Sequence record: NC_129898.1
Origin: a phage
Direction: 5' to 3' (one strand)
DNA length: 64,000 nt
The position numbers and the translations under genes are program-made. The notes under the pieces were generated by a model. The model saw only the letters and a program-made list of their open reading frames with translations. It did not search any database and had not been told where the DNA came from. Positions within the stretch are counted from its first letter, which is position 1; the number at the start of each line of letters is the position of its first letter. Shown here piece after piece: positions 15,952-31,791 of the stretch.

Positions 15952-16434
15952 TCAGTCCTCGCATTTAACAAATTTTTCTACAGATCCGCCAAGCACAGCT
16001 TGTTGCTTGATGGCACTTCCTTCATCATAGTGGATAGATTTATGCTCCGTTCCACCAAACTTCCCTGTGTGGAAGGTGTGCACCCAAATCTCTTTGGGAA
16101 GGGATTTATTCTCTTCTCCCACCAATTCCCACATACCCCACAAGTGATCTGTGATATCTCTGATGAAATATCCCTCACCGAGGTTTGTATTCACACTATA
16201 GGCCGATTCGTGATCTCCGTGAGTATAACGGAAGGCAGTGTACTCTTTCCCCGGTGTGAAGTGGGTATCCATCAGTATAGCTGTTAGAGAATTAGGGTCT
16301 CGAAAGCCCAAGAACTTTAGTTTAACAATTTCTACGTTTACACTTGCAAGATTATCCATGACAATCTCCTCTGTTGGGTTGGTGAGATAATCATATATAA
16401 ATCTGGTGTTAGTGTCAAGCTTAATTTTAAGCAA
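15952..16434 (-). CDS. hypothetical protein
   Basis: 160-aa ORF; several His/Asp residues but no motif assigned confidently. Confidence 0.5.
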   Translation of the reverse strand: MLKIKLDTNTRFIYDYLTNPTEEIVMDNLASVNVEIVKLKFLGFRDPNSLTAILMDTHFTPGKEYTAFRYTHGDHESAYSVNTNLGEGYFIRDITDHLWGMWELVGEENKSLPKEIWVHTFHTGKFGGTEHKSIHYDEGSAIKQQAVLGGSVEKFVKCED

Positions 16435-16522
16435 TTTGAGAGGGTATTTTATTCAGAAGGGTAATCGCACATAGGTAGGAAGTTTATGAAGGCACAGGCC
16501 TCGTTTGAGGCCTTAAAATCGA

Positions 16523-16975
16523 TTATGACACTTTGACGTAGCGCTCTGACAAAGCTGGAAAGCCAACAGCAGTACCTATGCTGCCGTATGCTATCCACCA
16601 TTGAAGTTCATCGTGACACCATTTTCCGATCAGAAAGGTGCTGGGGTAGCGAGTCAGTATTTTGGCATAAGCTTTAGGGTCTGCATCCTCTGGGATAATG
16701 ATGCTTGGAGCATCTTTGTTATGACCACAGCAGCAGTTTATAGTTTTCAATCCTGCCGCCCATAGACTCATGATAGGCTTAGCCATGCACTTATCAAGGC
16801 ACACACGTTTTTTTGCCGTCACGGAGCTTTTTAGGCACATCAACGATAACATTTGGATGCTTGGCACCTTTAACTTTCCAATTATAGGATTTACACTTGC
16901 ACATTTAATCAGTCTCCATTTAGAAATACACACTATTACGTTTTTGAGGCATACCTTACTTAAAGTCTTTGTCAC
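16523..16975 (-). CDS. hypothetical protein (start uncertain, possibly internal)
   Basis: 150-aa ORF; N-terminal part is low complexity, C-terminal part is protein-like. Confidence 0.35.
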   Translation of the reverse strand: MTKTLSKVCLKNVIVCISKWRLIKCASVNPIIGKLKVPSIQMLSLMCLKSSVTAKKRVCLDKCMAKPIMSLWAAGLKTINCCCGHNKDAPSIIIPEDADPKAYAKILTRYPSTFLIGKWCHDELQWWIAYGSIGTAVGFPALSERYVKVS

Positions 16976-17126
16976 CTATTACGATTGCACGAATCCACTC
17001 ATTGTGATGCTTAATGGCGGTAAGGTGTAACATAATGTAGTGATTGTCATTACCAAACACGGCGCGATAAGCTTTAGCAGCACCATGGTATAACTTCCAC
17101 ATCAAGTAATGGTATCTTCGTTTCAT
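16956..17126 (-). CDS. small hypothetical protein (56 aa)
   Basis: ATG overlaps the upstream stop (ATGA); below the ORF-track size cut-off; found by manual translation. Confidence 0.3.
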   Translation of the reverse strand: MKRRYHYLMWKLYHGAAKAYRAVFGNDNHYIMLHLTAIKHHNEWIRAIVIGDKDFK

Positions 17127-17602
17127 GGCTCTTTCTCCGGTTCAGGGTCTGGGTAATCTTCAATAATAAAGGGCCATCCATTACGCTTAGCGTCAGACTT
17201 ATACTCAATTTCCTTCATTGCAAATTCTAGCTGATTCTTAGCTGGAATGCAAGCTGGAGAATCATCAACCCAGATGTCCGGGTAGATATCAAACTGAGCC
17301 AGATAAGCGGCCTTCTGAACACCTACAGTATAAAACACTCCAACATCAAGCTCCTTGCGCCAGTATTCAATGTCCACATTATCTTGAGTGATGAACCGAA
17401 AAGTCACAAGGTAGACTGTCCACCCTTCCTTCTTCAGGTCCTTAATCAAGCGGGAGAAGATGAAAGGGCTCGCATTAAACGTTCCATCAAAGTCAATGGC
17501 GATGATATGCGTGCCGTGGCGAGTCTCATATGGATTGCTCGTGGTAAGATTGCTGTAGTTAAAAGGCACTTCTTCCCCGCAGTAGCTGTAGTCCATATTC
17601 AC
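17123..17602 (-). CDS. HAD-superfamily phosphatase
   Basis: HAD motif I IIAIDFDGTF (DxDGT) and a downstream WVDD acidic motif. Confidence 0.65.
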   Translation of the reverse strand: MNMDYSYCGEEVPFNYSNLTTSNPYETRHGTHIIAIDFDGTFNASPFIFSRLIKDLKKEGWTVYLVTFRFITQDNVDIEYWRKELDVGVFYTVGVQKAAYLAQFDIYPDIWVDDSPACIPAKNQLEFAMKEIEYKSDAKRNGWPFIIEDYPDPEPEKEP

Positions 17603-17874
17603 ACCTTCTCGTTGATAAATTTACGGGCGGTTTGGTGAGTTGTTTCCGCTGTCTTCAGGATAATATCGATCTTGTTGTCAAGATCCGCCATTTCAGCAGT
17701 AAGCTCAGGAATCTCTCCGGCATGCATGGTGAAATCATACATAGGCATGCCAAGAATCTCATTGATGCGGCGGTTGCATTCTGCAGCACGCTGGTTCATT
17801 TTCCACGCTAACACCAAAGCCTCCTGTGTGGCTTCTAATGCAAAGTCTAATACGTCGGCCTCTTCTTTCGTCAT
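17599..17874 (-). CDS. hypothetical protein
   Basis: 91-aa ORF coupled to neighbours. Confidence 0.5.
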   Translation of the reverse strand: MTKEEADVLDFALEATQEALVLAWKMNQRAAECNRRINEILGMPMYDFTMHAGEIPELTAEMADLDNKIDIILKTAETTHQTARKFINEKV

Positions 17875-17929
17875 CTCAGTCTCTCCTGTTTATTGTTGAT
17901 AGGTGCATGAATACCTTATAACTAACTCT

Positions 17930-18496
17930 TTATTCAAATTGCAATAGCAAGTCCACCACCGCGCTAGGTCTGTCAACAAACTCACCAGGTCCACATGCCC
18001 ACAGAGGGTATCCGTCCACATACCTCCATATCCAACCTGAAGTGTGGAGCTCAAGAAGGGCAGTGCCGTCCTTACTGTCAACCACTCTTTCCCACAGTGT
18101 TGGGCAGCGAAGCTTGAGGATCGGATCCCCGCCCTTATACCCATCCATGTAGATACCCATTGCAAAGTTCAGCATCATCTTTTTGTGCACTGACCTCTTG
18201 CTGAGGGTGCTCATCACTTCCTCTTTGTGGATGTTTGTAAGCTTCTCCTTGGCTACCCGCAGATCGTTGCAGCCATTGCTCAGAAGATCTTCCAGACACT
18301 TGACCCGAAGGTCGTGAATATCTTTGTCGTGCACCGTTGGTACAGGGTCGTAGCGATATAGCACTGTTGATACAAGGTTGCTAGGGTGTGGGTCTGACAG
18401 CAACCCATAACCCCAATACTCTTCTGTATCTGAAAGGACAAGACACCCAATATCTCTATCAAGCTTTCCTGTGTTGTAAGCCACATTGACCGCCAT
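17930..18496 (-). CDS. hypothetical protein
   Basis: 188-aa ORF. Confidence 0.5.
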   Translation of the reverse strand: MAVNVAYNTGKLDRDIGCLVLSDTEEYWGYGLLSDPHPSNLVSTVLYRYDPVPTVHDKDIHDLRVKCLEDLLSNGCNDLRVAKEKLTNIHKEEVMSTLSKRSVHKKMMLNFAMGIYMDGYKGGDPILKLRCPTLWERVVDSKDGTALLELHTSGWIWRYVDGYPLWACGPGEFVDRPSAVVDLLLQFE

Positions 18497-18498
18497 AA

Positions 18499-18744
18499 TT
18501 ATAGCTCCACTAGCAAAGTGCTTTCAAAATGCCTCTCATGCAGACCGCTATAAGGAACCACTTCCACAACACCGTCTCGGATATATGGAGTCATCATGGC
18601 AACATAATCACCGAATGGGTTGGCATTATCACTAACCACAACCACATGCTGCCCCTCCTTGGCAGAGTGCCAGATAGATCTGCATTTCATCATGTGTTCG
18701 AGAGCGCCAGGTAAAATCTTGTTACGTTCTTTACGGGTCTTCAT
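18499..18744 (-). CDS. hypothetical protein
   Basis: 81-aa ORF. Confidence 0.45.
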   Translation of the reverse strand: MKTRKERNKILPGALEHMMKCRSIWHSAKEGQHVVVVSDNANPFGDYVAMMTPYIRDGVVEVVPYSGLHERHFESTLLVEL

Positions 18745-19190
18745 AACAGGTATAGCTCCTTATGAAAGTGGGCTTTCAATTTCTCACCGAGAAACTTCTT
18801 GATACCTTCCTCTAAGGTGTTTTCGATGTAGTCCAGCTTAACTGCTTCGATGGACATATCATAGATCGCCAGCTCTAAGCTGTCAAGTCCCATCATAGCA
18901 TGAACCATAAGATTTTCATCTTCAGATACATTCAGGGGACTGCCTATAACATCCGTGGGCAGAATAGTTTCCCAATTATTCTGGGTGGTAGATCTCTCGC
19001 CATCCACCTTACGTCGCAGCTCGAAGGTGTTTTTAGTGTAAAACACTTCATAAGAAACGATACGACTGTCGCTCTCGTAATAAACGAAGTTCAGGTAGGA
19101 GCCGAGCCGTAGTCGGCAAACTTCTACTCCAAACCATTGTTTCTTATAAGAATTCAGGCTGATGCTTTCGCATTCACGTTTGCTCAACAC
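18741..19190 (-). CDS. hypothetical protein
   Basis: 149-aa ORF; start overlaps the upstream stop. Confidence 0.5.
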   Translation of the reverse strand: MLSKRECESISLNSYKKQWFGVEVCRLRLGSYLNFVYYESDSRIVSYEVFYTKNTFELRRKVDGERSTTQNNWETILPTDVIGSPLNVSEDENLMVHAMMGLDSLELAIYDMSIEAVKLDYIENTLEEGIKKFLGEKLKAHFHKELYLL

Positions 19191-19207
19191 GGCTCTCTCT
19201 CCTTTTG

Positions 19208-19477
19208 TTAATCTTCGTAAATCAGGATCTCTGCTTTAGGTTTTCGTGCTTTCAGGTCCAGCTCTATCCAGTGCACCACAGCTGTTTCAAGAAAAACAGC
19301 CTGTATACATCCGTCTTCAGCGTGTCCTACCAACATAACAAGATCTTCACCTTCGTCATCTTCATCACGAACATACAGAATCTCTCCGGGTTCAAAATCT
19401 TTCACAGTTTGATTGTTGGACAACTTACGAATTCTTGCCATATTAGAAACCCTCCACGAAGCTCTTGTAGAAAACAA
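19208..19477 (-). CDS. hypothetical protein
   Basis: 89-aa ORF. Confidence 0.45.
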   Translation of the reverse strand: MFSTRASWRVSNMARIRKLSNNQTVKDFEPGEILYVRDEDDEGEDLVMLVGHAEDGCIQAVFLETAVVHWIELDLKARKPKAEILIYED

Positions 19478-19706
19478 TCTCAGTATCTACACCAGTCACG
19501 ATCTTGTCGTTCCTGATTTCATCTGTAAGATAGGTGTCAAAACGCAGAACCTGTGTGGTGTTGTCACACATCCACTCGGCTGTGACCATGGCGAAAATCT
19601 TAGCATCCTCATTGTCCGGTGTGAATGTTACCACCTCACCGCATTTAAACTTTTCGATAGGTTGCGTGTTAGCTTTCGGTTCTGCAATGGTGATTTTTGT
19701 GGTCAT
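19443..19706 (-). CDS. hypothetical protein
   Basis: 87-aa ORF. Confidence 0.45.
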   Translation of the reverse strand: MTTKITIAEPKANTQPIEKFKCGEVVTFTPDNEDAKIFAMVTAEWMCDNTTQVLRFDTYLTDEIRNDKIVTGVDTEIVFYKSFVEGF

Positions 19707-19972
19707 TGCTCTTCCTCCATAGTTTCACCAAATACTTCGATACGAGCGTCAAGCTCTGTTGCTTTCAGTTCTCCAACAAAATCTTTCAGTTCTTTCTCGT
19801 CAAGATCATATGCCCACACACAAGATGAGCATGCAGATTTCACGATTAGCAGTGTAGATACACGTCCTGACTCTGTAATCATGCTCACAATGGTTCCTAC
19901 AGGGAACGTGTTGATAGCTTTTTTAACTGGGCGTTCAGCCTTAATTACTACTTCTGTTGCCATAAATAACAT
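19703..19972 (-). CDS. hypothetical protein
   Basis: 89-aa ORF. Confidence 0.45.
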   Translation of the reverse strand: MLFMATEVVIKAERPVKKAINTFPVGTIVSMITESGRVSTLLIVKSACSSCVWAYDLDEKELKDFVGELKATELDARIEVFGETMEEEQ

Positions 19973-19978
19973 CCTCTC

Positions 19979-21460
19979 TTATTTAGCGTACTCGATTAAT
20001 TCTACAGTTTTCCCAAAGCTTGGGATATAATTTTTATTATACCCTTCGGTGAGAACCCATAAAGTATCGTACTTTTTCCACTTGTTGTCAACAGCCTTTT
20101 GTTCAAAGTTATGCTCAAAGTATAGGTCGGTCAGGACGATGACATCTTTTGCATTTGGTATGTTAGCGTCCAGATACTCGAACACGCAAGCGGCTGTTGT
20201 TCCCCATGTTGAGTGGACCTCATAGTTGATCATCTCGTCGATGTTCCCGCGAGTGTATACTTTAACCTCTCCAACCTCAGTTGACCAACAGAACATCGTA
20301 ACCTTGAACTCTTTATACAGATTGCACAACCCAGTGATCTCATTGAACATTTTCTTTAAAGTTCTTTGGGAGATCGATCCAGAAACGTCTAGAGCCACCA
20401 CAATATCTATAGTGTTTTCCGGATTACGACCTGGAACAACAACGTGCTGATTCTTGTTTATAGCCCCAACTTTTCGCATTGTGCTGGTCAAAGACCCAGA
20501 TCGGCGACCGGGTTTTCTATAGGTTAGTTCAGCCTTTCGTTTAGACAGCATACGTTGCTTAATGATGTCTATATAATTGATTACAGGCTTACCTCTGTTC
20601 TTGACAAACTCACGCACAGCCTCAGGGCAACGACCTCCGGAAGCCTGCATTGCTGCTTCCAACATGTCACCAGAGTCCTGCATAGCTTGATCTTTATCAG
20701 ATTGACTGATCACTGGTTGTGGCTGATCATACCCCATCGCCTTTCCAAGATCATCACTAGTGCCACCGTTACCACTCATGTGATCATCGGTTTGTCGTTT
20801 ATCTCCTTGAGAGTTCTCGCCTTTACCGTTCTTACTTTTACCGCTATTCTGATCTCTTTGCTTATCAAGAACCGCATAGACGTTCTCAGCAATCCATCCA
20901 TGGAACCTCATGTCACAGTAGCAACTAGCTAAGAAGCCAAAAGGCTTACCTTTTACAAACGTAGTGCTTTTCCCCTTCGGGAAGAAAACACAAGGTGGCT
21001 TGCTAAAGTCAACCACAAGACCTGTGTTGATAACATGATCACAGGCAATATTGAACAGTTCCGGCTCAAAGCTTTTACCACGGACCAGATGATCACAGAT
21101 AATATGCCCCACCTCATGCGATAGAAGAAATGCCACCTCTTTCACAGATTTGGGGGAATAGAAAACCTCAGCCATCTCAAACTGCTTGTCAGTCAAAGAT
21201 GCCTTAAGAATGGTTTTGCGCTCATCAGCCAATCCCATAACGAACTCAGGACTGTAATAAATGCGTTTATGATCTGTTGCCATGGTGGAGCACCATGTGT
21301 GGTTTTCTACGAACTGCAACCCTGACAACAGTGTGCCATAAAACGGCAGTTTTTCAAGAAGATACATACGTGCTGCCTGCAGCATTCGCAAGGCGTCATC
21401 TTTTTGTGCGGCAATGATTTCTGAACTTCTGCTATCCATTAAAGCTCCAGAAGGGGCCAA
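19979..21460 (-). CDS. vWA-domain protein with N-terminal putative zinc metallopeptidase domain
   Basis: HExxH motif (HEVGHIICDH) in the N-terminal half; C-terminal vWA MIDAS motif DVSGS (IVVALDVSGSIS); Gln/Ser/Gly/Asp-rich linker. Confidence 0.7.
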   Translation of the reverse strand: MAPSGALMDSRSSEIIAAQKDDALRMLQAARMYLLEKLPFYGTLLSGLQFVENHTWCSTMATDHKRIYYSPEFVMGLADERKTILKASLTDKQFEMAEVFYSPKSVKEVAFLLSHEVGHIICDHLVRGKSFEPELFNIACDHVINTGLVVDFSKPPCVFFPKGKSTTFVKGKPFGFLASCYCDMRFHGWIAENVYAVLDKQRDQNSGKSKNGKGENSQGDKRQTDDHMSGNGGTSDDLGKAMGYDQPQPVISQSDKDQAMQDSGDMLEAAMQASGGRCPEAVREFVKNRGKPVINYIDIIKQRMLSKRKAELTYRKPGRRSGSLTSTMRKVGAINKNQHVVVPGRNPENTIDIVVALDVSGSISQRTLKKMFNEITGLCNLYKEFKVTMFCWSTEVGEVKVYTRGNIDEMINYEVHSTWGTTAACVFEYLDANIPNAKDVIVLTDLYFEHNFEQKAVDNKWKKYDTLWVLTEGYNKNYIPSFGKTVELIEYAK

Positions 21461-21472
21461 AGGCCCCTGTCA

Positions 21473-22528
21473 TTATTTAACGTGCTTGAAAATACCAGCC
21501 AACTCGGTCATCGTCATGCGAGTGGTCTTCATAAGGTCTGTCATAGCCTTCTCCATGATTGGAGATACTACCATAAAGTTACCTTTGGTGAAACCTTTAT
21601 TCCAGTCGGTTACTAATAGTGGTTTAAGTCCGGTACCGAGACGCTCACCAGTTAAAGCACAACATTTTCTAATGTACGTGCTCTTAAATTGACTGAATGA
21701 CAGATCAACTTTCATACCTGCATCGTAGAACGTCTGGCAATAGAAAGTGTAAGCTTTGGCAATCTCAACATCGTCAGGCAGTGCAGGAACCTCTTCTGTG
21801 AGCTCTTCTTCGGCCCCTTGAGGCTCTTTTTCCTCTTCGTGATCCTGTTGCATCATTTCTTCAATCTCTTCTGTTACAGGCTCGTTTACAATGTCAGAAA
21901 TGTGCTTGTTGGCTCCACGATTAGCCATGAAGTTTTTAAAATCCTGCATTGGTGACATATCTTCCTCCCATTCTTCGTCAAAGAGTGCTAGTTTATCCTC
22001 TTCAGTTCCATATTGCAAGATGAAATCTTCAAAAGTGTAATCACCTTTCAATTTCTCCATACGCTCTTCGCTCAGGTGGAGCATCATCTGCTGGACAATT
22101 TTTCGATCAGTTTTGTCTTTAATCAAGATTGCGGTCTTTTTATCTACCAGGCAGTCTTTCAGAGAGTTACACCTCAATCCTACCACACAACAGTTATCAA
22201 TTGCGTAAGGACCTTCATCATCTATCCGCTCCAGAGATGGGTAGAAAGGATTCCCCAGCCCGTTTTCATCTGTGTGCATGTCGAAAGGTATAAGGGTATA
22301 GTCGCATACCCCCTCTCCTAAAAGTTTTTTACCAAATAGGAGGTATTCTTCCCATGACAGGTTGAACTCTATATCTCGTTTCCGTGCATTATTTTGTTTG
22401 CGTCTGTATTTTTTGAGCAGGCGCTCTAACTCTTCTGGTGTATAATATTTTTCAAGATTCATGAGTTGTCTCTTGTGCTCTGTAGGTGGAGAAATCTTAT
22501 CAAGCACCTGGGAATATGTCAACCTCAA
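21473..22528 (-). CDS. tandem HNH-like (His-Me finger family) domain protein, putative homing-endonuclease relative
   Basis: Two copies of a motif set (RKRDIEFNLS...C.YT...PSLERIDDEGPYAIDN and KVDLSFSQF...CALTGE...VTDWNKGFTKGNFMVV) flank an acidic linker. Confidence 0.4.
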   Translation of the reverse strand: MRLTYSQVLDKISPPTEHKRQLMNLEKYYTPEELERLLKKYRRKQNNARKRDIEFNLSWEEYLLFGKKLLGEGVCDYTLIPFDMHTDENGLGNPFYPSLERIDDEGPYAIDNCCVVGLRCNSLKDCLVDKKTAILIKDKTDRKIVQQMMLHLSEERMEKLKGDYTFEDFILQYGTEEDKLALFDEEWEEDMSPMQDFKNFMANRGANKHISDIVNEPVTEEIEEMMQQDHEEEKEPQGAEEELTEEVPALPDDVEIAKAYTFYCQTFYDAGMKVDLSFSQFKSTYIRKCCALTGERLGTGLKPLLVTDWNKGFTKGNFMVVSPIMEKAMTDLMKTTRMTMTELAGIFKHVK

Positions 22529-22535
22529 AAACGTG

Positions 22536-22564
22536 TTGACTTTACTCTAAATCCACGATATAGT
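22536..22564 (+). promoter_or_regulatory. sigma70-like promoter (TTGACT-17-TATAGT) in divergent intergenic region
   Basis: Hexamers with 17-nt spacer upstream of RBS AGGAG and ATG 22605. Confidence 0.55.
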
Positions 22565-22604
22565 TCACCCATTCGAAAGAAAACGAACACAGGAGTACTT
22601 AATC

Positions 22605-23504
22605 ATGGCAAATCTTAACAGCTTTAGCACTCGATGGAAACAAGATATCACAACTAATCTCTCTGCAGGCGATATCCTTTCTGCAATTTACGAGGCTTTG
22701 GATGATAAAGCTACTTCAAAATCGGTTTGTACCAACCCGTTAATTCCTATGGTAATGAAGGTGATTGAGCGTAGGTTGGTATCCGGATCTGATAAGTGGA
22801 CATATCTGGATAATGGAGGCCACACTTACTCCAACGGATATGTCGATATAAAAGTAGAATATGCGGTATCATATCGCCGGAGCGGCTCTGTAACTTTCAA
22901 CTTCTCTGGTGGTTTCCGATCTTTGGCAACTTCACCTTTTGTTTCCTCAGAGGAGAGGTTTGAACTTCCGTTCCTTTGGATGATGGCTAACGCGACAGGC
23001 AAAACCCCTGTAAGCATTCGCGTAAAATACAACTACAACGGATCTAGTAAGATCTATGCCGAGAGTGTCTCAGCAAGTTTTTATTTTGTGATGGGGGATG
23101 GAATCCTCAAACATATAAAGATGTGCGATATGCATGATGTTATAAATGAAGTGACTGATAAGAATGTTCTGGTGAAGGATCTCAACAATTTTTATACACC
23201 GGGAGACTATTACGTCAACCGTCCACTGTGCATCTTTAATGCTGTACACCCTTTAGGTGAGTATTTGATCGCCAATAGTGATATTGCCAATAACCGCTTC
23301 GAGGTAGCAAGAGTACAGAATGAGGTATTGACATCTTGCAAGAGTGGTGATAAGTTTACCGAAGAAGAGCTGGGTGTTTTAGAAATGATGGGATATAAGT
23401 GCAGTCTTTGGGTAGATGAGGTGTTTAATGACGGCATCTACGGACAGGATATTTACCCGTTAAAGAAGTATACTGATTCCAGTTTAATTTACGCGGAGAT
23501 TTGA
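22605..23504 (+). CDS. hypothetical protein
   Basis: 299-aa ORF, first gene of the plus-strand early block. Confidence 0.55.
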   Translation: MANLNSFSTRWKQDITTNLSAGDILSAIYEALDDKATSKSVCTNPLIPMVMKVIERRLVSGSDKWTYLDNGGHTYSNGYVDIKVEYAVSYRRSGSVTFNFSGGFRSLATSPFVSSEERFELPFLWMMANATGKTPVSIRVKYNYNGSSKIYAESVSASFYFVMGDGILKHIKMCDMHDVINEVTDKNVLVKDLNNFYTPGDYYVNRPLCIFNAVHPLGEYLIANSDIANNRFEVARVQNEVLTSCKSGDKFTEEELGVLEMMGYKCSLWVDEVFNDGIYGQDIYPLKKYTDSSLIYAEI

Positions 23505-23779
23505 CTATGATGAAGGCATGTGGTAGTGTATACTATGTGGGTGAAAATGTTCAGGCAGACAGTGTGTGGAAATCCATTAAGTCCACCACCGATGATGCCT
23601 TCTTGAGCGGGTTATGTTTCCCCAATCCTGGAGACATTCTCCCTCACCCTGGGGATTTTGTTGTTAACAAGACAGATGGTTATACTGTGTGCCTGATGGT
23701 TGAAAAAATCTTTTTAGACACTAGACACAATCACCGTCTTGTGTTAAGATTTCAAGAATGTAAAATGACAGTTGCCTAA
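23501..23779 (+). CDS. hypothetical protein
   Basis: 92-aa ORF coupled to the upstream gene. Confidence 0.45.
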   Translation: MTMMKACGSVYYVGENVQADSVWKSIKSTTDDAFLSGLCFPNPGDILPHPGDFVVNKTDGYTVCLMVEKIFLDTRHNHRLVLRFQECKMTVA

Positions 23780-23791
23780 GGAGGCCTACCA

Positions 23792-24148
23792 ATGTCTAAA
23801 GTTACTTATCGTGCAGCTATTTACTGCAATGAGCAACCAATCAATAGTGATGGTCACTGCTTTTTTAAAGAAAATCAGTTGGGCTGTATTGCCCTCCTTG
23901 ATGAAGGGGAAGGTTATATGATTGCATTGACAGGGTTTGAGCCTGAAGCCTTGGAAGCCAATCTGGACTACCTGGTAGAGAAGGGTGCTGCAGACTTGGT
24001 TGCCAATGGCCTCTCCATAAGCCTTGAAGAAGTGGAGCGCTTCATGGGCAACTACCGTGTAGTGCGTGAGTTTACTATCGAGGTGGAAACTCCAGAGTGG
24101 GGTAGCACCGAAACTAATGCTGAAGAAAAAGAAGAGGAGACAGAATAA
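23792..24148 (+). CDS. hypothetical protein with acidic C-terminus
   Basis: 118-aa ORF after RBS AAGGAGG. Confidence 0.5.
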   Translation: MSKVTYRAAIYCNEQPINSDGHCFFKENQLGCIALLDEGEGYMIALTGFEPEALEANLDYLVEKGAADLVANGLSISLEEVERFMGNYRVVREFTIEVETPEWGSTETNAEEKEEETE

Positions 24149-24405
24149 TGAAAGTACAGATCTTGACTAATGCCGAGAAGATGTTTATTGAAGATACGCC
24201 TTTTGAAACTGGTGAGCTACAGTTTGTATATTTTGTTGACTTAGATAAGGTTTTTCCTGCGCTTAATCTGGGTTTGGAGAAAGTACCTTATAAAACTCTA
24301 TGCCAGGTTGTCCGTGCCTTAGCAGCAGATGGAGAGTTCCACACCCTTGAAGATATCCAGACCTATGGGTATCTTGAACTGCAACGAGAAGAAGAGGTAG
24401 ACTGA
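24148..24405 (+). CDS. hypothetical protein
   Basis: 85-aa ORF with ATGA overlap. Confidence 0.45.
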   Translation: MKVQILTNAEKMFIEDTPFETGELQFVYFVDLDKVFPALNLGLEKVPYKTLCQVVRALAADGEFHTLEDIQTYGYLELQREEEVD

Positions 24406-24407
24406 TA

Positions 24408-24788
24408 ATGGCCCAGTGGAAGACAACAGTTGACCTTCATGATCAGTGGTTAGGACGCATAACTGAGGACGGGAAACTGGTAGAGTGGGACAACAAGCAT
24501 GTTAGCGAGTTGGCAAGTATTGTGGCTGGCAAGTTACGCTCCAAGTTCCCTGAACAGCTGGATCCTGATAGTTCAAAGTTCGATCCTGAGTTGGAGGATG
24601 TTGTATACTACTTCGATACCGTTGATGACTACGACGCGTGGTTTGCAGCACGAGAGCTTTACCCACAAGGCTCTGCTATGCGCCAGATGGAAGAAGATTA
24701 TCCTCCGTGTGAGCAATTCAATAGTGCAATGACTTGCCTCTATGATTGGGCAGATAAGAACCTTGTCTGGATTCGGACTGCATTTTAG
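24408..24788 (+). CDS. hypothetical protein
   Basis: 126-aa ORF. Confidence 0.5.
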   Translation: MAQWKTTVDLHDQWLGRITEDGKLVEWDNKHVSELASIVAGKLRSKFPEQLDPDSSKFDPELEDVVYYFDTVDDYDAWFAARELYPQGSAMRQMEEDYPPCEQFNSAMTCLYDWADKNLVWIRTAF

Positions 24789-24832
24789 TGGGTAGGGATG
24801 GCGGCAAGGATGCTGCTTAAGGAGTAGTAGAG

Positions 24833-25102
24833 ATGTTATACCAGCAGTACGAACTTCGTGCAGAAAAAGAATTAAATTTTGACAAAGATATTCACAGATA
24901 TTATTATGGGAAAGTTAGAGGGCAAGCAAGAAAGTGTACTCCAACACTTTTTTATGCCAGCAGACGACTAGCGCCAGAAGAGGCAACAGCAGAAAGGGTT
25001 GCATATGGCTGGAGAGTTGCGTATGATATTGACAGATCCGATGTGATGTCTGTTTTGGAAAACTTTGAAAACACTTACACACAAGTAGAGGACTTTTACT
25101 AA
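24833..25102 (+). CDS. hypothetical protein
   Basis: 89-aa ORF; stop overlaps the MoxR start. Confidence 0.45.
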   Translation: MLYQQYELRAEKELNFDKDIHRYYYGKVRGQARKCTPTLFYASRRLAPEEATAERVAYGWRVAYDIDRSDVMSVLENFENTYTQVEDFY

Positions 25103-26286
25103 TGTCAAGAAACGTATTCGAAAGTGGTCAAATCACTGTCCGCGAGTTGCCAGCTATTATTCAATTTGCCCAGCGTCATAACCGATCCGTCCTGATTTTA
25201 GGACCGATGGGTGTGGGGAAGAGTCAGGTGATGAAGCAGATTGCTGATAATATGTTCGGTGAGCGAGATGACAACCTGGTTGACGTGCGGTTGTCAGATA
25301 AAGATCCTGCTGACTTATCTGGACTGCCTATCCCTGTGGAGGCAGATGGAACTACACGTACCGTGTTTGCAATTCCAGAATTTTGGCCTGCGGACTCGGA
25401 CTGGAGCGGAATTATCTTTCTGGATGAGCTTACTCATGCAGATAACTACCTGCAGAAGGTTGCAATGCAAATTATGCTCGACCACAAGTGCGGCACCTAT
25501 GCATTTCCTAAGGGCTCTGTTTTTGTAGCTGCAGGTAACCGTGCTACAGACGGTGCTGTTCTTTCGGCACTCGAAGCTCCTCTAGCTAACCGCTTTATCA
25601 TTGTAGAAGTTACAAGCAATGCAGAGGTGTTTATTGAGGACTATGCATTCCTTAATGGGGTGCACTCCTCGGTAATTGGATATCTGAAAAGAGTCCCATC
25701 AGCCATCGATAATTATGAGGCCATGGCTGAGATTAATTGTCCATCTTTTGCTACACCGCGATCTTGGGTTGCTGCATCTGACATCCTGCACGATTTTGAC
25801 AGCGGTATTATTTCTGACGCTATGGCTCGTGTTCTTCTGCAAGGCGCTATCGGTCACACTGCAGCGGTAGAAATCTGGACCTACCACACCAAGAAACGAA
25901 ACTTGCCAGAAATCGGTCGGATTATGGCAGGGGGTTGCAAAGAGTATGTAGGTCCTAAGCAGCCAGACATCTTGTGGATTCTGGGGTCTGAAGGTTGTAT
26001 CGCTATTCGTAACATGATGGAAAATGCAAGTATCTCCGACGAAGATCTTGTCAGCTGTGTGGCAAACTTCCTTGATTTCCTTTGGGAAAATTTCAAGGAT
26101 GAGAACCGAGACTTTGTATTCTCAGTCTTTATGGCAATGATGAAACCCAACGCCCTAGGAAATGCCTTACTTATTGGTAAAGGTCGGGACAAGATCGTTG
26201 CTCAGCTGATCAAAGCATACCCAAACCTGATGAAGATTGTAAAAGAGTTTGGTGAAGAGTTTAGCGCCATTTTAGCTAAAGCTTGA
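25102..26286 (+). CDS. MoxR-family AAA+ ATPase (CbbQ/NorQ/CobS-like)
   Basis: Walker A LILGPMGVGKSQ and Walker B IIFLDELTHA at spacing typical of AAA_5/MoxR proteins. Confidence 0.75.
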   Translation: MSRNVFESGQITVRELPAIIQFAQRHNRSVLILGPMGVGKSQVMKQIADNMFGERDDNLVDVRLSDKDPADLSGLPIPVEADGTTRTVFAIPEFWPADSDWSGIIFLDELTHADNYLQKVAMQIMLDHKCGTYAFPKGSVFVAAGNRATDGAVLSALEAPLANRFIIVEVTSNAEVFIEDYAFLNGVHSSVIGYLKRVPSAIDNYEAMAEINCPSFATPRSWVAASDILHDFDSGIISDAMARVLLQGAIGHTAAVEIWTYHTKKRNLPEIGRIMAGGCKEYVGPKQPDILWILGSEGCIAIRNMMENASISDEDLVSCVANFLDFLWENFKDENRDFVFSVFMAMMKPNALGNALLIGKGRDKIVAQLIKAYPNLMKIVKEFGEEFSAILAKA

Positions 26287-26295
26287 GGAGGTTGT

Positions 26296-26676
26296 ATGGC
26301 TAAAGTAGGTAAGCGGGGAAACTACCTGGTGGTATTGACCGAGGAGCCGGAAAAGGAGTACGAATGCAGCTCCACTTGCGTGATCGATATCCGAGAAAAA
26401 GATGTAGATGAAATCTGGTTTAAAATATTGGACGCTTGCGACAGCAGTGACTATTTCTTCATCTATGTCAACGATAAAGCGGGGTTCTTCCATGACGATG
26501 GAGAGTTACCGTATGAAATCTATGAACTTGTAGAGGCTTGCCATCGTGGAGATGCGGAGTTGTTTGGTCTACGGCTGAAAAGTGGTAAGTTCTTCTACCA
26601 AGACGAATGCATGAATCTTCACAACTTCGTAGAGGGAACTTGCAACGATGGAGAGATTCTGGCACACTACGACTAA
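26296..26676 (+). CDS. hypothetical protein
   Basis: 126-aa ORF after RBS GAGGAGG. Confidence 0.5.
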   Translation: MAKVGKRGNYLVVLTEEPEKEYECSSTCVIDIREKDVDEIWFKILDACDSSDYFFIYVNDKAGFFHDDGELPYEIYELVEACHRGDAELFGLRLKSGKFFYQDECMNLHNFVEGTCNDGEILAHYD

Positions 26677-26688
26677 TTTCTAAGACCA

Positions 26689-26718
26689 CCCCCGCTTCGG
26701 CGGGGATTTTCTATTTGG
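26689..26718 (+). terminator. rho-independent terminator
   Basis: Hairpin ccccgc-ttcg-gcgggg plus T-tract; same hairpin as at 515-533. Confidence 0.7.
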
Positions 26719-26725
26719 AGTTATT

Positions 26726-27226
26726 GTGAAAATTAAAATCTTTGCTATTATTTTGAGCGCATTTTTATCGCTGCCTGTTGTTGCAGCACCAAAACAAAAA
26801 GTATATCACACCTGCAAGCCATCGGATACTAAGGAGAACATTCTGGCATGCAATATCTACAGGGAAGCCAGAGGAGATGGCACGATGGGTATGTTGGCAT
26901 CTGGGTTTGCCACACTGAACAGGAAATCTCACCCTAAATACCCAGACACTATAAGAAAGATTGTCTACCAACCTAACCAGTTTTCGTGGACAAACCACGG
27001 CAAAACTTTTAAGGTGACAGAAAAAGATTCATGGGATCACGCTAAAAGTCTTGCAAAGATGCTTCTAAAGGTCTATAATAACAACCATGTTGCATACATG
27101 GCTATGGATATAACAGGTGGAGCAACACACTATCATACAACAAAAGTACGACCGGAATGGGCAAAAAAGATGCAGAGGACAGCTCAATTCGGGAGTCATA
27201 TCTACTACAAGGAGCGCAATAAATGA
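26726..27226 (+). CDS. SleB-type cell wall hydrolase (Hydrolase_2 family) with N-terminal signal peptide; candidate secreted endolysin
   Basis: N-terminal MKIKIFAIILSAFLSLPVVAAP signal-like segment; motifs NIYREARGDG and YQPNQFSW match the SleB family signature. Confidence 0.65.
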   Translation: MKIKIFAIILSAFLSLPVVAAPKQKVYHTCKPSDTKENILACNIYREARGDGTMGMLASGFATLNRKSHPKYPDTIRKIVYQPNQFSWTNHGKTFKVTEKDSWDHAKSLAKMLLKVYNNNHVAYMAMDITGGATHYHTTKVRPEWAKKMQRTAQFGSHIYYKERNK

Positions 27227-29205
27227 TTGTAAACAGTAATGAAACTAAAGCAGTGCTAACTGGGAATATGGAGGTCACAAGGGGATCAATTTCTCTGAAT
27301 AAAGAGACTTTTGGGTTAATCATTAAAGGGATTTATGAAGATAAGGTGCTGGCAAGCTGCCGTGAACCAATCTTCAATGCTGTAGACTCCCATGTTGAGT
27401 CTGGACGGAGTGATGTACCGATCATTATTCACTCTCCTACAGATCTTGAACCATACTTCTTTGTGCAGGACGTTGGCCTAGGCATGTCAGAAGAGATGGT
27501 CCGCAACACCTTCATGAACCTCGGTGAGTCAACCAAGCGCAATAGCAACGCTCTGGTTGGTAATAAGGGTGTTGGTTCAAAGGCCCCGTTCAGCATGGTA
27601 GACACTTTCGATGTAATCAGTGTGCACAATGGTGTGGAAAGCACATATCTATTGTTCTTGGATCAGGGCATCCCAAATGTCACCAAGATCCGTGAGCGGA
27701 AGACTGAAGAGCACAACGGGGTAAAAGTTCAGTTTCATGTTAAGAAAGAGCATGTTCTGAAATATCGCACTGCTATTGCATCATGTTTGCGCTATGCAAA
27801 ATTTCCGTTCACTGTCACCGATCCGATGACGAGCAAGATGCTGGAGGGAGACAAAGTAGAGGCGCAGTATTATTATGAAAAAGATGGTTGGAAGATGACC
27901 ATCCTGAAGGGCTATACCAGTTCTGACGAGAGTCGTGTGGTAATGGGTCACCAACCTTACCGTTCTAAGTTCCTGGAAACACTAACAGATTATCCTGCAA
28001 TTTGTGTAGAGATCCCTATCGGAGATTGCAATATTAACCCAGGGCGTGAATGGACCATAGAAGGTCACGATGATGGTGGATTCCAAGAGCGTTTGGAAGC
28101 TTTTGTCAAAGAAGGCATTCGCCTTCGTGGAGCAGAAGTTGTTGCAGAACTAGAGACAGCAAAAACATCCTCAGAAGCACGCGAGATGATGAAGAACAGT
28201 GGAGTGTTCGGGCACATCTTCGGTAAGAATTTTATGTATGACCGCTGGGAAGAAACAGGGCTAGGGAATTTGGGGGACTGCGAGATCTTCGCTGGCGGCT
28301 TAAATAAAGGCCGCATAGGTTACGCCTGCTACGGAAAGGTAGAATTCTTACGGGGAGTTTATTTAGTATTTAACGACGGAGACGGCAAATATAACCGGAA
28401 TAAGTGTAACTACTTAAGCGAGATCACCGGACGCAACGTTTTCTATTGCCGTAACACGGATCTGGTGAAAGAGTTTAAAGAGGCGGCACACCATCCGTTT
28501 TTTGCAGATACGGTCAAATTGTTATCAGAGCTCCCTCGCCGACCTGTGAAGAAAGGTGAAACAAAAACTCGTTATGAGCCCGGTTATTGGGTTAAAAAAC
28601 TTGAGAAGGATGGTTACTTCCGTCGTGAGCGTATTACCAAGGCAGAGTTCAGGAAGATTAAGCACTGCATACCGTATGAGGGGGATATCCAACGCGGAAG
28701 TTGTTGGCTAGGGCAGATGAGTAACATCTACCAGCAAAATTATGACCGTGTGCGTGCGGCACTCCAGATCCCTGAAGGTGAAGATCTGTACCTGGTATCA
28801 GAATCTCGTCTGCTTTGGACTGATCCTAATTGCCAATATGTTACAGAGAAGAATGTGGAACATTTGCTGAAAGAGGATGCTTGGAAATTCTTACTGACTC
28901 GCGCAGCAAATGAAACTTCATATGACAGCCTGTACAGACAGTTAGGTAAAATTATACCCATGCAGGATTTTGGAAATTATCAGCCACATTTCCACAAGTG
29001 GGAAGGTAGCACCACGTGGAAGTATGGTGAGCTGAATCATCGTGCCAAAGTCTTAATCGCCAACCGAGTTAAGTGCGGGAAGGCCTATATTGCAAGATTG
29101 GAAAAGAAATATCCACTTTTAAAGCATGTAGGCTTGAAATATTGGGACACCCCTGCTATGATTGAATACCGTGAACTGATCGATACAAAGAATAACATCA
29201 AATAA
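27223..29205 (+). CDS. GHKL-type ATPase domain protein, possibly rIIA-like
   Basis: N-terminal Bergerat-fold motifs: N-box EPIFNAVDS, G1 box QDVGLGMS, G2 box VGNKGVGSKAPFS; 660 aa; followed by a candidate rIIB-like gene. Confidence 0.55.
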   Translation: MIVNSNETKAVLTGNMEVTRGSISLNKETFGLIIKGIYEDKVLASCREPIFNAVDSHVESGRSDVPIIIHSPTDLEPYFFVQDVGLGMSEEMVRNTFMNLGESTKRNSNALVGNKGVGSKAPFSMVDTFDVISVHNGVESTYLLFLDQGIPNVTKIRERKTEEHNGVKVQFHVKKEHVLKYRTAIASCLRYAKFPFTVTDPMTSKMLEGDKVEAQYYYEKDGWKMTILKGYTSSDESRVVMGHQPYRSKFLETLTDYPAICVEIPIGDCNINPGREWTIEGHDDGGFQERLEAFVKEGIRLRGAEVVAELETAKTSSEAREMMKNSGVFGHIFGKNFMYDRWEETGLGNLGDCEIFAGGLNKGRIGYACYGKVEFLRGVYLVFNDGDGKYNRNKCNYLSEITGRNVFYCRNTDLVKEFKEAAHHPFFADTVKLLSELPRRPVKKGETKTRYEPGYWVKKLEKDGYFRRERITKAEFRKIKHCIPYEGDIQRGSCWLGQMSNIYQQNYDRVRAALQIPEGEDLYLVSESRLLWTDPNCQYVTEKNVEHLLKEDAWKFLLTRAANETSYDSLYRQLGKIIPMQDFGNYQPHFHKWEGSTTWKYGELNHRAKVLIANRVKCGKAYIARLEKKYPLLKHVGLKYWDTPAMIEYRELIDTKNNIK

Positions 29206-29215
29206 GGAGACCAAG

Positions 29216-30421
29216 ATGATTTTCATCTACGAACATTTCAAAACCCGTAAAGAAGCACGAGACCGCCGTGCAGAACTTGAGAAGAAAGGTTTCACATGCG
29301 CTATTGAGAAAGGTGACACAACCTGGACACTGGCAGTGGGTGCCCCAGAGGTGTTCGATCCTGACCGTGACAGCGTCTGCTACACCCGTGAGGATTTTGA
29401 AACCCGTGAAGAGGCCCGTTTATTTCGATATGGGTTGGAAGATAACGGTAAGTACGCCATGATCCTAGACTTAGGCGAAGGTTCCGTTAAACGTTGGGGC
29501 GTGGTATACCCACTGTGTGTTGTTCACGGTGTGGGGTTCACTGGGGTAGCAGTTAAGTCAGAAGAACCTTCGGTAGAAGTCAAAGACCCGGTGCTGGAGG
29601 TGGTGAGCAGTGTGTCTCAGCAACAGACTCGAAGCATCGAGCCTTTGGTAGTTATTTGCGGAGAACTCCTCCAGATCACCTGCAACGAAGGTATTTTTGA
29701 AATTCGCCGTAGCGAAAGTGAGGAAGTTTACCAGAAAGTCTTCGACCATATCTCTGTTCAGGAATATGATGAGGCAATTGGTGAAATCCTTATCTGGCTG
29801 GAACGCAAGAATGAGTTCACTACACTGACAGACAACCTGATTATGAAAGATGGTAAGCTCTACTACTACGGTGTAGAGATGCGATCTACCATTGCAAAGA
29901 AAATTGAGAAAGATTATGCAGATGGAACACTGGATGACCGCTATGTGAAATTCCTAGTTCGCCTGTTACGCAATCCGTCTGCAAAATCTGTAAACATGCT
30001 CTACGATTTTATGCAGGCAAACGACATTCAGATTGCAGAAGATGGTCGAATCATTTGCTACAAAGGGGTTCAGTTTAACGGCGACAAGTGGGTGGATTGG
30101 CACAGTGGTAAAGTCCCACAATACCAGGGTGCTTTTGTATCCATGCCTCGTAACTTTGTAGAGGATGATCCGGAAGCTGCATGCTCTTATGGTCTGCACT
30201 GTGCCAGCAAAGAGTGTGCAAAGAGCTACGGCACTGTGATGACGGTTATGGTTGACCCTGCTGATGTAGTCAGTGTACCTTACCAACACAACAGCGCTAA
30301 GTGCCGTGCATGCCGCTACGAAATCGTAGTAGCTCCAGAATCGCGCAAAGATGGAGACCCAATCGAGTACGTGGTTGACCGCGACGGCAACACTATCGAC
30401 ATTATCTACGAGGAGGCGTAA
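29216..30421 (+). CDS. hypothetical protein, possibly rIIB-like partner
   Basis: 401 aa; C-terminal region SYGLHCASKE...VMVDPADVVSVP...CRACRYEIV resembles what I recall of the rIIB C-terminus; recall-based. Confidence 0.4.
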   Translation: MIFIYEHFKTRKEARDRRAELEKKGFTCAIEKGDTTWTLAVGAPEVFDPDRDSVCYTREDFETREEARLFRYGLEDNGKYAMILDLGEGSVKRWGVVYPLCVVHGVGFTGVAVKSEEPSVEVKDPVLEVVSSVSQQQTRSIEPLVVICGELLQITCNEGIFEIRRSESEEVYQKVFDHISVQEYDEAIGEILIWLERKNEFTTLTDNLIMKDGKLYYYGVEMRSTIAKKIEKDYADGTLDDRYVKFLVRLLRNPSAKSVNMLYDFMQANDIQIAEDGRIICYKGVQFNGDKWVDWHSGKVPQYQGAFVSMPRNFVEDDPEAACSYGLHCASKECAKSYGTVMTVMVDPADVVSVPYQHNSAKCRACRYEIVVAPESRKDGDPIEYVVDRDGNTIDIIYEEA

Positions 30422-31791
30422 TGGAAAAAGGGCAGTACGATGTAGGCACAGATGCTGCCCTTGTTGCAATCATGAGTGGTGAGAATGTCTTCGTAAGTGG
30501 ACCGGGTGGAACCGGGAAGACATATCTTATCAACATGATCCAGTCTATGTATGGAGACTCTTGTATAACGGTTGCCCCGACAGGGGTAGCCGCTTTAAAC
30601 GTTAATGGAGCAACAGCACACCGAACTTTCGATCTTGCCGCAGGTGTGAGCATGGAGTCAGACTGGACAGCAATAAGGGCAAAAACAGCAAAGCCTCTGA
30701 AAAGCAAGGCATTTACCATCCTAATTATCGATGAAATCTCTATGATCCGTGCTGACAAGTTCATAGAGATGGACAGAAAACTCCGCTTTCTTCGGAAAAA
30801 TGACAAACCTTTCGGAGGCATTCAGGTGTTATTGTTTGGAGATTTCTACCAAGCGCCTCCAGTTGTCTCTTCCATGGAGAAAGAAGCCTACTTCAACTTC
30901 TACCACACAGATCTGTGTTGCTATACAGAATCTTGGGAGGATCTTAATCTTCACAATATAGCCTTAGTAGACCAGTTCCGTCAGGAATCTGTTCGCTTCG
31001 CCACAATGTTGAACTGTGTTCGTGAAGGTCGTCGCATAAAAGAGGTTGTAGCAGAGCTTAACACTCGTTGCTATCATGGCGGTGTCCCAACAGATGCCTT
31101 GACCATCTGTGCCACCAATAAGCAAGCAGAGGAGGTGAACAGACGTTTCTATGATGCCATCAAGGCCCCAGAGAAGACCTACATTGGTAAAATGAAGGGT
31201 AAGTTCCCTTCCACACTGCCTGTGGAGCAGGAAATGAGGCTGAAGATAGGGATGAAGGTTATGATAACCTCAAACGATGTTGACCCTACTCACAAAGTTC
31301 CGTATTATGTCAACGGGACACGTGCCACAGTGGTAAAATTCAAGACCAAATCCGTGGTAGTTGAGCTAGAAGATGGGGCACAGGTTGAAATTGAGCCGAG
31401 ATTGTGGGAGAATAACGAGTACAAACCTTCCCAGAGGTACAATATTGCCGAAAGGAAGATGGAGAAGTTCATAGAGAGGGTTGTGATCGGGTCTTATGAG
31501 CAACTCCCTTTGAAATCGTGGTACGCAGTAACATCGCATAAAAGTCAAGGACTTACACTAGATTGTTACAACCTGGACCTCGGAAAGAACGGAGCTTTCT
31601 CTCCCGGAATGACGTATGTTGCCTTGAGTCGGGTTAAGACGATACAAGGAATAAACTTGTTGCGTCCATTAAGAGAGGTGGATATTATTGTTGACCCGCG
31701 AGTCGTAGAGTTTTATAATACAACTTTCCCTGGCTTAGACGAGAAAGTCAGGAAAGATTTTGAAACTAGAGTAGAAAAGGGGGACGTATGA
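30421..31791 (+). CDS. Dda/PIF1/RecD-like superfamily 1 DNA helicase
   Basis: Walker A GPGGTGKT, Walker B LIIDEISM, motif LLFGDFYQAPPV and C-terminal SHKSQGLTLD. Confidence 0.8.
   Translation: MEKGQYDVGTDAALVAIMSGENVFVSGPGGTGKTYLINMIQSMYGDSCITVAPTGVAALNVNGATAHRTFDLAAGVSMESDWTAIRAKTAKPLKSKAFTILIIDEISMIRADKFIEMDRKLRFLRKNDKPFGGIQVLLFGDFYQAPPVVSSMEKEAYFNFYHTDLCCYTESWEDLNLHNIALVDQFRQESVRFATMLNCVREGRRIKEVVAELNTRCYHGGVPTDALTICATNKQAEEVNRRFYDAIKAPEKTYIGKMKGKFPSTLPVEQEMRLKIGMKVMITSNDVDPTHKVPYYVNGTRATVVKFKTKSVVVELEDGAQVEIEPRLWENNEYKPSQRYNIAERKMEKFIERVVIGSYEQLPLKSWYAVTSHKSQGLTLDCYNLDLGKNGAFSPGMTYVALSRVKTIQGINLLRPLREVDIIVDPRVVEFYNTTFPGLDEKVRKDFETRVEKGDV

Follow-up and report, generated by a model that had tools for sequence, protein, structure and literature searches.

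A MoxR-class AAA+ ATPase and a protein that joins an N-terminal HExxH, zincin-like domain to a von Willebrand factor A (vWA) domain at its C-terminus are encoded on opposite strands of a 64,000-nucleotide (nt) stretch of phage DNA (NC_129898.1; hereafter the window), and the analyses described below leave little doubt that they are a cognate pair. The window belongs to a Vequintavirus, an rV5/FV3-like myophage of Escherichia coli, with the 8 kb around the two genes sharing 97.4% identity with Escherichia phage FV3 and 93-97% with over 100 further Vequintavirus records. When compared by hhalign, the ATPase aligned with N4 gp24 (E = 6.5e-36) and its partner with N4 gp25 (E = 9.3e-41); on these alignments, the Vequintavirus pair is to be regarded as versions of N4 gp24 (ATPase) and gp25 (vWFA). 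The latter belong to the 14-gene core of N4-like phages, where their function is listed as 'Unknown' (PMC4193335, PMC2784036). The presence of the two genes was already known, because close relatives annotate both and the homologues in N4 appear in core-gene lists from 2009-2014 onwards, and a MoxR/vWA pair in a phage will not surprise the specialist. Added here are the link to N4 gp24/gp25, a quantified near-obligate pairing, a lineage-specific split of the two genes and the distribution of the retained and the lost catalytic glutamate.

Sequence and predicted structure of the two proteins

The two open reading frames (ORFs) proposed by the first-pass annotation were both recovered, the first encoding 394 amino acids (aa) from an ATG (25102-26286, plus strand) and the second 493 aa from a TTG (19979-21460, minus strand). 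For the latter, the existence of the gene and its stop at 19979 stood, but not its start: the gene most likely begins at the ATG at 21439, giving 486 aa, because relatives annotate a 1461-nt coding sequence, a GGAG lies 8 nt upstream of this ATG and the TTG falls inside a hairpin (coordinates of all features in Table 1).

The core AAA+ motifs were all present in the ATPase, namely Walker A, Walker B, sensor 1, arginine finger and sensor 2. Among the 163 family members (distinct pairs) to which all conservation counts refer, G37, K40 and S41 of Walker A, D108 and E109 of Walker B, N146 of sensor 1, R164 and R220 were invariant in 162-163. In the AlphaFold2 (AF2) model, calculated like that of the partner for a monomer (predicted local distance difference test score, pLDDT, of 84), the AAA+ core bears a helix-2 beta-hairpin insert whose strands (75-81 and 84-90) come after strand 59-63 and before the Walker B strand 102-108. 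It is this insert in helix 2 that is said to define the MoxR/midasin/chelatase clade (PMC7159879). The model also shows a short pre-sensor-1 hairpin at about residues 129-134, before strand 138-145, and places R164 directly ahead of strand 165-170, which is the arginine-finger position before strand 5.

When this model was compared with the PDB by Foldseek, the top 18 matches were NorQ chains and CbbQ2, with E values from 7.5e-9 to 3.5e-7, NorQ being among the best solved structures both alone and complexed with the NorD vWA domain. Thousands of relatives were found in a large protein database, and those at E values of about 1e-43 (31-35% identity) carry AAA_3, AAA_5 and sometimes bpMoxR. A bacterial relative (L171) scored above the Pfam cut-offs, with 37.6 bits for AAA_5 and 30.7 bits for AAA_3, and the profile of the ATPase family (A3) matched the AAA modules of Midasin at 1.6e-11. 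Direct sequence search of the PDB with the ATPase gave only P-loop-level matches (ClpB, ClpC), and NCBIfam contained a meaningful family for neither the ATPase nor its partner. As the motifs, the predicted fold (closest to NorQ and CbbQ) and the relatives agree, the protein was assigned to the MoxR class. The profile searches do not place it outside the clade that the first-pass annotation had proposed, in which it constitutes a diverged subfamily whose C-terminus bears an additional helical region of about 110 aa.

In the partner protein, Pfam detected in N-to-C order DUF2201_N (PF13203, 'putative metallopeptidase domain'; 5.7e-28, 98.7 bits with a cut-off of 23.2) and DUF2201 (PF09967, 'VWA-like domain'; 3.6e-11, 43.7 bits with a cut-off of 26.4); the corresponding scores of N4 gp25 are 293 and 158 bits. 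The HExxH motif that had been claimed for its N-terminal part was found as HEVGH at residues 108-112, and the claim of a vWA domain was borne out by the C-terminal DUF2201 match above cut-off, by a DVSGS motif and by Foldseek matches to vWA domains, including that of NorD. In the AF2 model (pLDDT 81), the HExxH lies within helix 99-118, which is followed by helix 126-144 with the conserved N130, D134 and N138, and a disordered, charged and variable insert interrupts the zincin-like domain at about residues 200-228. Conservation in this domain was complete for H112 and H117 (163/163) and high for D134 (161/163) and H108 (153/163), with E109 present in 117/163; from this pattern, H117 and D134 are candidate third metal ligands. 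[quoted passage not shown] The N-terminal domain alone found at least 2000 cluster representatives, and because nearly all of the full-length ones measure 380-520 aa with this domain at the N-terminus, the two-domain architecture is fixed. Sequence search of the PDB with the partner gave no match, and no solved structure was found for its family.

Several Vequintavirus records already name the two genes, as 'MoxR ATPase' and as 'VWA-like domain-containing protein', 'putative metallopeptidase domain' or 'metal-dependent peptidase'; in other records, the zincin-vWA gene is labelled 'HNH endonuclease', 'anti-sigma factor' or 'gp25-like protein'. That the 486-aa protein is an HNH endonuclease is the label of PHROG phrog_1314 and the RefSeq name of N4 gp25 and many homologues. 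However, no HNH family matched it in Pfam at E <= 0.01, where DUF2201_N and DUF2201 were found instead; its N-terminal domain is helical in the model, with the conserved histidines in a long helix as HExxH and a second helix behind it, as expected for a zincin-like and not for a beta-beta-alpha-metal fold; and its C-terminus is a vWA domain. The label was rejected, and the probability that it is right is considered negligible. Together with the name 'ATPase' (phrog_13164) given to an 89-aa ORF that precedes the ATPase gene, the 'HNH endonuclease' label (phrog_1314) looks wrong and both have spread, the N4 case being L008 3165-4307. The 89-aa ORF had no Pfam match and no P-loop visible in its sequence.

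Co-occurrence of the two genes and their lineage-specific split

The ATPase and its vWA partner were found to co-occur in a near-obligate manner. A vWA profile detected 58 loci in IMG/VR, of which 53 hold the ATPase within 10 kb, and two of the five misses lie at a contig edge, which leaves 53/56. The ATPase profile detected 80 loci in the same database, 70 with the vWA gene and ten that end within 1.1 kb of the ATPase, hence 70/70; in 67 of these 70 pairs, the vWA gene is directly downstream of the ATPase gene on the same strand, mostly at less than 150 nt. On contigs of bacteria and metagenome-assembled genomes (MAGs), the ATPase profile detected 79 loci, 70 with the pair, seven without room for it and two without partner, or about 70/72. 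An ORF of an Arcobacter MAG that unites the ATPase with DUF2201_N and DUF2201 in 738 aa (L174 7986-10199) was left out as linkage evidence, because compared to its relatives it lacks one base where the two genes overlap (ATGATGA), and could be an assembly error or a real fusion.

A tblastn search of 50,697 phage records detected the two proteins in 671 and 812 records, with nearly equal genus counts for both (Escherichia 213/213, Pectobacterium 26/26, Cronobacter 17/17). The pair spans the Vequintavirinae, N4-like podoviruses and jumbo phages, with both podovirus and myovirus morphologies, and is thereby among the more widely conserved phage gene sets, its N4 homologues making up two of only 14 N4-like core genes. 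Between the window and phage BP9 (dS ~0.35), the ratio of non-synonymous to synonymous substitution (dN/dS) was 0.016 for one gene and 0.017 for the other, showing that both are under strong purifying selection; given these values and the conservation in so many records, the ORFs do not exist by chance. The distance matrices of the two proteins over the 163 distinct pairs were correlated (r = 0.91, Mantel p <= 0.001), much of which would be expected from shared descent alone.

The opposite strands and the distance of 3.66 kb in the window could also mean that the two genes are functionally unrelated here, the ATPase acting after the split alone or with another partner and the zincin-vWA protein independently. 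Three viral loci that bear the vWA gene with no ATPase within 10 kb (L016, L031 and L051) would agree with this; a relaxed hidden Markov model search plus Pfam on selected neighbouring ORFs revealed no ATPase within 10 kb on either side of them, where the partner may be located further away or the protein may be an adaptor without a motor. However, every split-type locus examined still has both genes, dN/dS is equal and very low in both, their distance matrices are correlated as described, and a second vWA gene was not seen among the neighbours examined. Functional independence is thus regarded as highly improbable.

As the first-pass annotation had stated, the two genes are divergent; their start codons are 3.66 kb apart, with transcription pointing away from each other. 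Its further statement that they are not in an operon is right for this phage, whereas elsewhere an ATPase-then-vWA operon is the usual layout and the split is confined to one lineage. Every rV5-, PVP-SE1-, 4MG- and Mydo-like locus showed the divergent layout, the gap measuring 3.4-5.1 kb. In the more distant Certrevirus/CR3-like loci (L028, L032 and L070; about 35% identity), the two genes are direct neighbours in the same orientation, separated by 17-537 nt, and they are likewise adjacent in N4, in a 578-kb jumbo phage and in marine phage contigs. Therefore, the split is limited to one subclade of the Vequintavirinae, the rV5/PVP-SE1 branch, and adjacency is ancestral.

The comparison with N4 illustrates this change. 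Both pairs are homologous over nearly their full length and have the DUF2201_N plus DUF2201 architecture in common, but N4 gp24 and gp25 are adjacent, co-oriented and 167 nt apart, a layout that the window does not have. Because both proteins are homologous although the layout differs, the window carries the N4 module in rearranged form. The Vequintavirus proteins are also longer (394 vs. 352 aa for the ATPase and 486 vs. 380 aa for the partner), with additional insertions in the zincin-like domain. The N4 genes are arranged as gp24, gp25, gp33 rIIA, gp34 rIIB and gp37 helicase (L008 1939-14001), and in the window the ATPase is likewise followed by rIIA, rIIB and a Dda/PIF1-like helicase; in the 578-kb jumbo-phage contig (L006), the ATPase and vWA genes are adjacent with rIIA further downstream. 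That the podovirus N4 and an rV5-like myovirus have an ATPase-(vWA)-rIIA-rIIB-helicase order in common suggests an early/replication module that is old and shared. In the split branch, the ATPase stays with the rIIA-rIIB-Dda helicase block and the vWA gene is in the opposite transcription unit behind an Srd-like gene. One inversion as the source of the split does not fit, because the ATPase keeps the co-oriented rIIA, rIIB and helicase genes while the vWA gene is second in the opposite unit; therefore, relocation with inversion, or several events, would be needed.

Possible functions of the pair

The reading favoured here, with moderate confidence, is that the two proteins are halves of one machine, consisting of a MoxR-class motor and a zincin-vWA adaptor-effector. 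Both genes would be transcribed early from sigma-70-type promoters around a shared divergence point, a hexameric ring of the ATPase would dock the vWA domain, the metal site of the MIDAS would capture an acidic residue or a peptide of a target protein, ATP hydrolysis would remodel the target or the adaptor, and the HExxH domain would then cleave or process the target. The complex, the hexamer, the capture by the MIDAS, the proteolysis and the timing are proposed by analogy with NorQ/NorD, CbbQ/CbbO and RavA/ViaA (PMC13036017, PMC9976466, PMC7159879). From these analogies, it is likely that the pair works as a MoxR/vWA remodeller, and proteolysis would be slightly favoured as the effector step. 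More tentatively, the pair could be an uncharacterised two-component AAA+ protease, with the HExxH protease and the MIDAS selector on the adaptor, the MoxR ring unfolding or remodelling, and one host protein being cut early.

If this last proposal is true, the target would be a host protein such as a housekeeping or defence factor, the N4-like core status of the pair and its retention in over 600 genomes of phages that differ widely in morphology would be explained, and the version found in Campylobacterota chromosomes (see below) would have lost its catalytic activity and found another use as a chaperone that handles metal. Provided that the pair is a targeted ATP-dependent protease or remodeller, it would also represent a new architecture for the MoxR/vWA family, in which most characterised members act in metal insertion or enzyme activation, and identification of its substrate would uncover an early step that is common in infection. 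As E. coli Vequintaviruses and N4 are genetically tractable, the function is directly testable.

Among characterised systems, NorQ/NorD and CbbQ/CbbO provide the closest solved fold for the AAA+ module (Foldseek E ~1e-8, target-normalised template modelling score ~0.65), and their partners too have a C-terminal vWA domain with a MIDAS. The logic of such systems is one hexamer plus one adaptor, with the target bound via the MIDAS (PMC13036017, PMC9976466), and the same would be expected of the phage pair by analogy. In contrast, sequence identity between NorQ or CbbQ and the phage ATPase is only 16-21%, the C-terminal helical extension of about 110 aa is on the phage ATPase, NorD and CbbO are without the HExxH zincin-like N-terminal domain, and the phage vWA domain is much smaller than theirs, with no 'finger' demonstrated and no linkage to a metalloenzyme gene seen in phages.

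Several observations weigh against a machine of this kind. Concerning the motor, the Pfam matches of the ATPase itself were below threshold and centred on the P-loop, with 17.0 bits for AAA_5 (PF07728; cut-off 22) and 15.8 bits for bpMoxR (PF20030; cut-off 27), and AAA_3 (PF07726) was not matched in this search. Concerning the effector, the assignment as a zincin rests on DUF2201_N and the HExxH motif; two whole-protein fold searches with the partner gave only vWA matches and recovered no solved zincin, because vWA matches filled the list, and the only sequence hint of zincin kinship was a weak M48 match (E = 0.58). The vWA domain is minimal, at about 140 aa, and its docking mode on the ATPase may differ, as a NorD-type 'finger', which enters the NorQ pore, was not demonstrated. 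In 46 members, all encoded on Campylobacterota chromosomes, T, C, A, I or V takes the place of the HExxH glutamate, with the His/Asp residues and the MIDAS retained; because these members lose the glutamate and keep the metal-binding residues, the conserved function at the core of the N-terminal domain may be to bind a metal or a peptide and not proteolysis. The three viral loci without a nearby ATPase and the contribution of shared descent to the matrix correlation have to be added to this side. Finally, no functional experiment on this ATPase/DUF2201 vWA family was found in the searchable literature, in agreement with the earlier remark that its role in phages is poorly defined. As for the phage-type members, all 117 keep the full HExxH with its glutamate and, therefore, their putative catalysis appears to be under selection.

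The main rival is a chaperone for the insertion of a metal or cofactor, comparable to NorQ/NorD, which delivers iron into nitric oxide reductase, or to CoxD/CoxE and CobS/CobT. In this case, the vWA protein, driven by the ATPase, would open a metalloenzyme of the phage or the host, and the N-terminal His/Asp site would bind and deliver the metal instead of cleaving peptide bonds. The closest solved folds, NorQ and CbbQ, are metal-insertion or enzyme-activase MoxR ATPases, H112, H117 and D134 are present in 161-163 of the 163 members, and the glutamate is dispensable in the 46 Campylobacterota members, whose pairs lie among genes for NifQ, flavodiiron, ferredoxin, nitroreductase, redoxin and hemerythrin-like proteins. 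However, the glutamate is kept by every phage-type member, and across phage lineages no conserved metalloenzyme gene accompanies the pair, its gene neighbourhood varying between N4, jumbo phages, marine contigs and Vequintavirus. For the phage pair, metal insertion is thus considered rather unlikely.

The bacterial homologues bear on this question. In chromosomes of Campylobacterota (Sulfurimonas, Arcobacter, Sulfuricurvum and others; L148-L225), MoxR and DUF2201 genes are adjacent, often with overlapping reading frames, and the ATPases are about 33-36% identical to the phage ATPase. Behind the pair lies a third gene that is also conserved, encoding about 235 aa without Pfam match. In the Sulfurimonas type, the neighbours encode NifQ-like, flavodiiron, 2Fe-2S ferredoxin, nitroreductase, redoxin and ArsC-like proteins (e.g. 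L171 3905-11497; L197 5591-10873), and hemerythrin-like genes were also found near Campylobacterota pairs. These operons, with redox and metal protein context, a third gene and the glutamate lost, differ from the phage pair, which is surrounded by phage genes and keeps it. Judged from these residues and neighbours, one scaffold seems to have been put to two uses, being catalytically competent in phages and non-proteolytic, possibly metal-handling, in Campylobacterota, where the operon may represent an undescribed chaperone system for metal cofactors.

A bacterial pair of another context was detected in GCA_045600625.1 (L005 1-17239), beside an AAA_2 ATPase, a 1076-aa SNF2/ResIII helicase, an M50-like peptidase, a Ser/Thr kinase, a PP2C phosphatase, another vWA protein and a JAB-like protein. 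This region looks like a conflict or mobile island.

A role as virion or assembly chaperone has a precedent in the archaeal two-tailed virus ATV, whose MoxR protein p618 binds the vWA protein p892 and tail proteins (PMC4124505) and for which a function in tail development has been proposed. Like the phage pair, p618/p892 is a virus-encoded MoxR plus vWA combination, and the presence of the phage pair in podoviruses, myoviruses and jumbo phages could be taken in the same sense. In contrast to the phage genes, which belong to an early, non-structural region, p618 forms part of the virion and has been implicated in the growth of the tails outside the cell. Both window genes lie in an early/replication-type region (Srd-like, rIIA, rIIB and Dda-like helicase genes) outside any structural module, N4 gp24/gp25 are described as middle-gene transcripts (PMC4193335), and a structural target common to such different virion types is unlikely. 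An assembly function is, therefore, held to be improbable.

MoxR is also coupled to vWA, as in the phage pair, in RavA/ViaA and in the MoxR-vWA 'ternary' conflict systems (Kaur et al., 2020, PMC7159879), and the phage ATPase has the weak bpMoxR match already mentioned. The vWA component of some conflict systems carries a fused peptidase domain. However, the ternary systems contain VMAP, FtsH or a beta-propeller and occur in multicellular bacteria, whereas the phage pair is found in lytic phages and is without a conserved third component. When PADLOC models were searched, the vWA protein had no match and the ATPase only marginal P-loop matches over about 30-47 residues (DpdH at 5.6e-4, mad8, BrxF). 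As PADLOC gave nothing meaningful, an assignment to defence or anti-defence by homology was rejected.

Locus organisation and expression signals

Table 1. Position of the two genes, their motifs and domains, and associated features in the window
Feature	Position	Strand	Basis or remark
MoxR-class AAA+ ATPase, 394 aa, N4 gp24 homologue	25102..26286	+	ORF, motifs, AF2, Foldseek, hhalign
Walker A GPMGVGKS	25201-25224	+	motif translation
Walker B IIFLDE	25411-25428	+	motif translation
Zincin-like + vWA protein, 486 aa, N4 gp25 homologue (DUF2201_N + DUF2201)	19979..21439	-	Pfam, coding sequences of relatives, hhalign, AF2
N-terminal helical zincin-like domain, ~aa 1-335	20435..21439	-	HEVGH 21104-21118; conservation; AF2
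C-terminal vWA domain, ~aa 340-486	19982..20422	-	MIDAS D351-x-S353-x-S355 (DVSGS, 20375-20389), T414, D438
Perfect GC-rich hairpin AGGGGCC-TTT-GGCCCCT	21452..21468		in the 33-nt gap from the Srd-like stop to the vWA ATG
Srd-like gene	21473-22462/22528	-	between vWA gene and promoter region
Sigma-70-like promoter match TTGACA-17-TAAGAT, with TG	22522-22494	-	consensus scan
Sigma-70-like promoter match TTGACT-17-TATAGT	22536-22564	+	consensus scan
Six small ORFs	22605-25102	+	precede ATPase gene
89-aa ORF	24833..25102	+	stop overlaps ATPase start (TAATG)
Promoter-like site TTGACA-17-TATTAT, 11/12	24879-24907	+	consensus scan; inside the 89-aa ORF, just upstream of ATPase

As shown in Table 1, the ATPase and vWA genes are not themselves at the divergence point, other genes intervening on both sides. 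At this point, two sigma-70-like sites were found back to back (22494..22564); they are pattern matches only, and agree with the rV5 paper. The 89-aa ORF, also found upstream of the ATPase in a relative of 72% identity (L011), is probably translationally coupled to it, because its stop and the ATPase start overlap. On the other side, the hairpin ahead of the vWA gene scores as a terminator on the plus strand, which is non-coding here; on the minus strand, it is followed by TCTGGAGCTTTAATG, without a clear U-tract. It may act as a partial terminator or as an element of RNA stability or processing, and in this way may set the expression ratio of the Srd-like and vWA genes. From the arrangement of these signals, both genes of the pair would be expected to be co-expressed.

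Downstream of the ATPase (25102-31791) follow a 126-aa ORF, a SleB-like hydrolase, rIIA, rIIB and the Dda/PIF1-like helicase. The hydrolase (26726-27226, plus strand) is of the SleB/CwlJ cell-wall type (Pfam Hydrolase_2, 2.7e-19), has a signal-peptide-like N-terminus and lies between the ATPase and rIIA; besides it, no lysis gene was seen among the neighbours examined in this early-type region. No tRNA genes were found in the window. Relatives give the name 'putative alpha 1-3 fucosyltransferase' to the 299-aa product of 22605-23504 (plus strand), which had no Pfam or NCBIfam match and fell only in a PHROG of unknown function; this name appears to be unsupported.

When the 8 kb from 19000 to 27000 was compared with GenBank, 16 entries named 'Campylobacter phage' (host C. 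jejuni; MG0656xx) were 93-98% identical across the whole segment. These records may carry a mistaken host label or stem from contaminated lysates. Finally, both GC skew and AT skew turn negative over about 16-22 kb (window 16000-22500), which matches the minus-strand gene block to which the vWA gene belongs, a pattern consistent with a long-standing minus-strand transcription unit.

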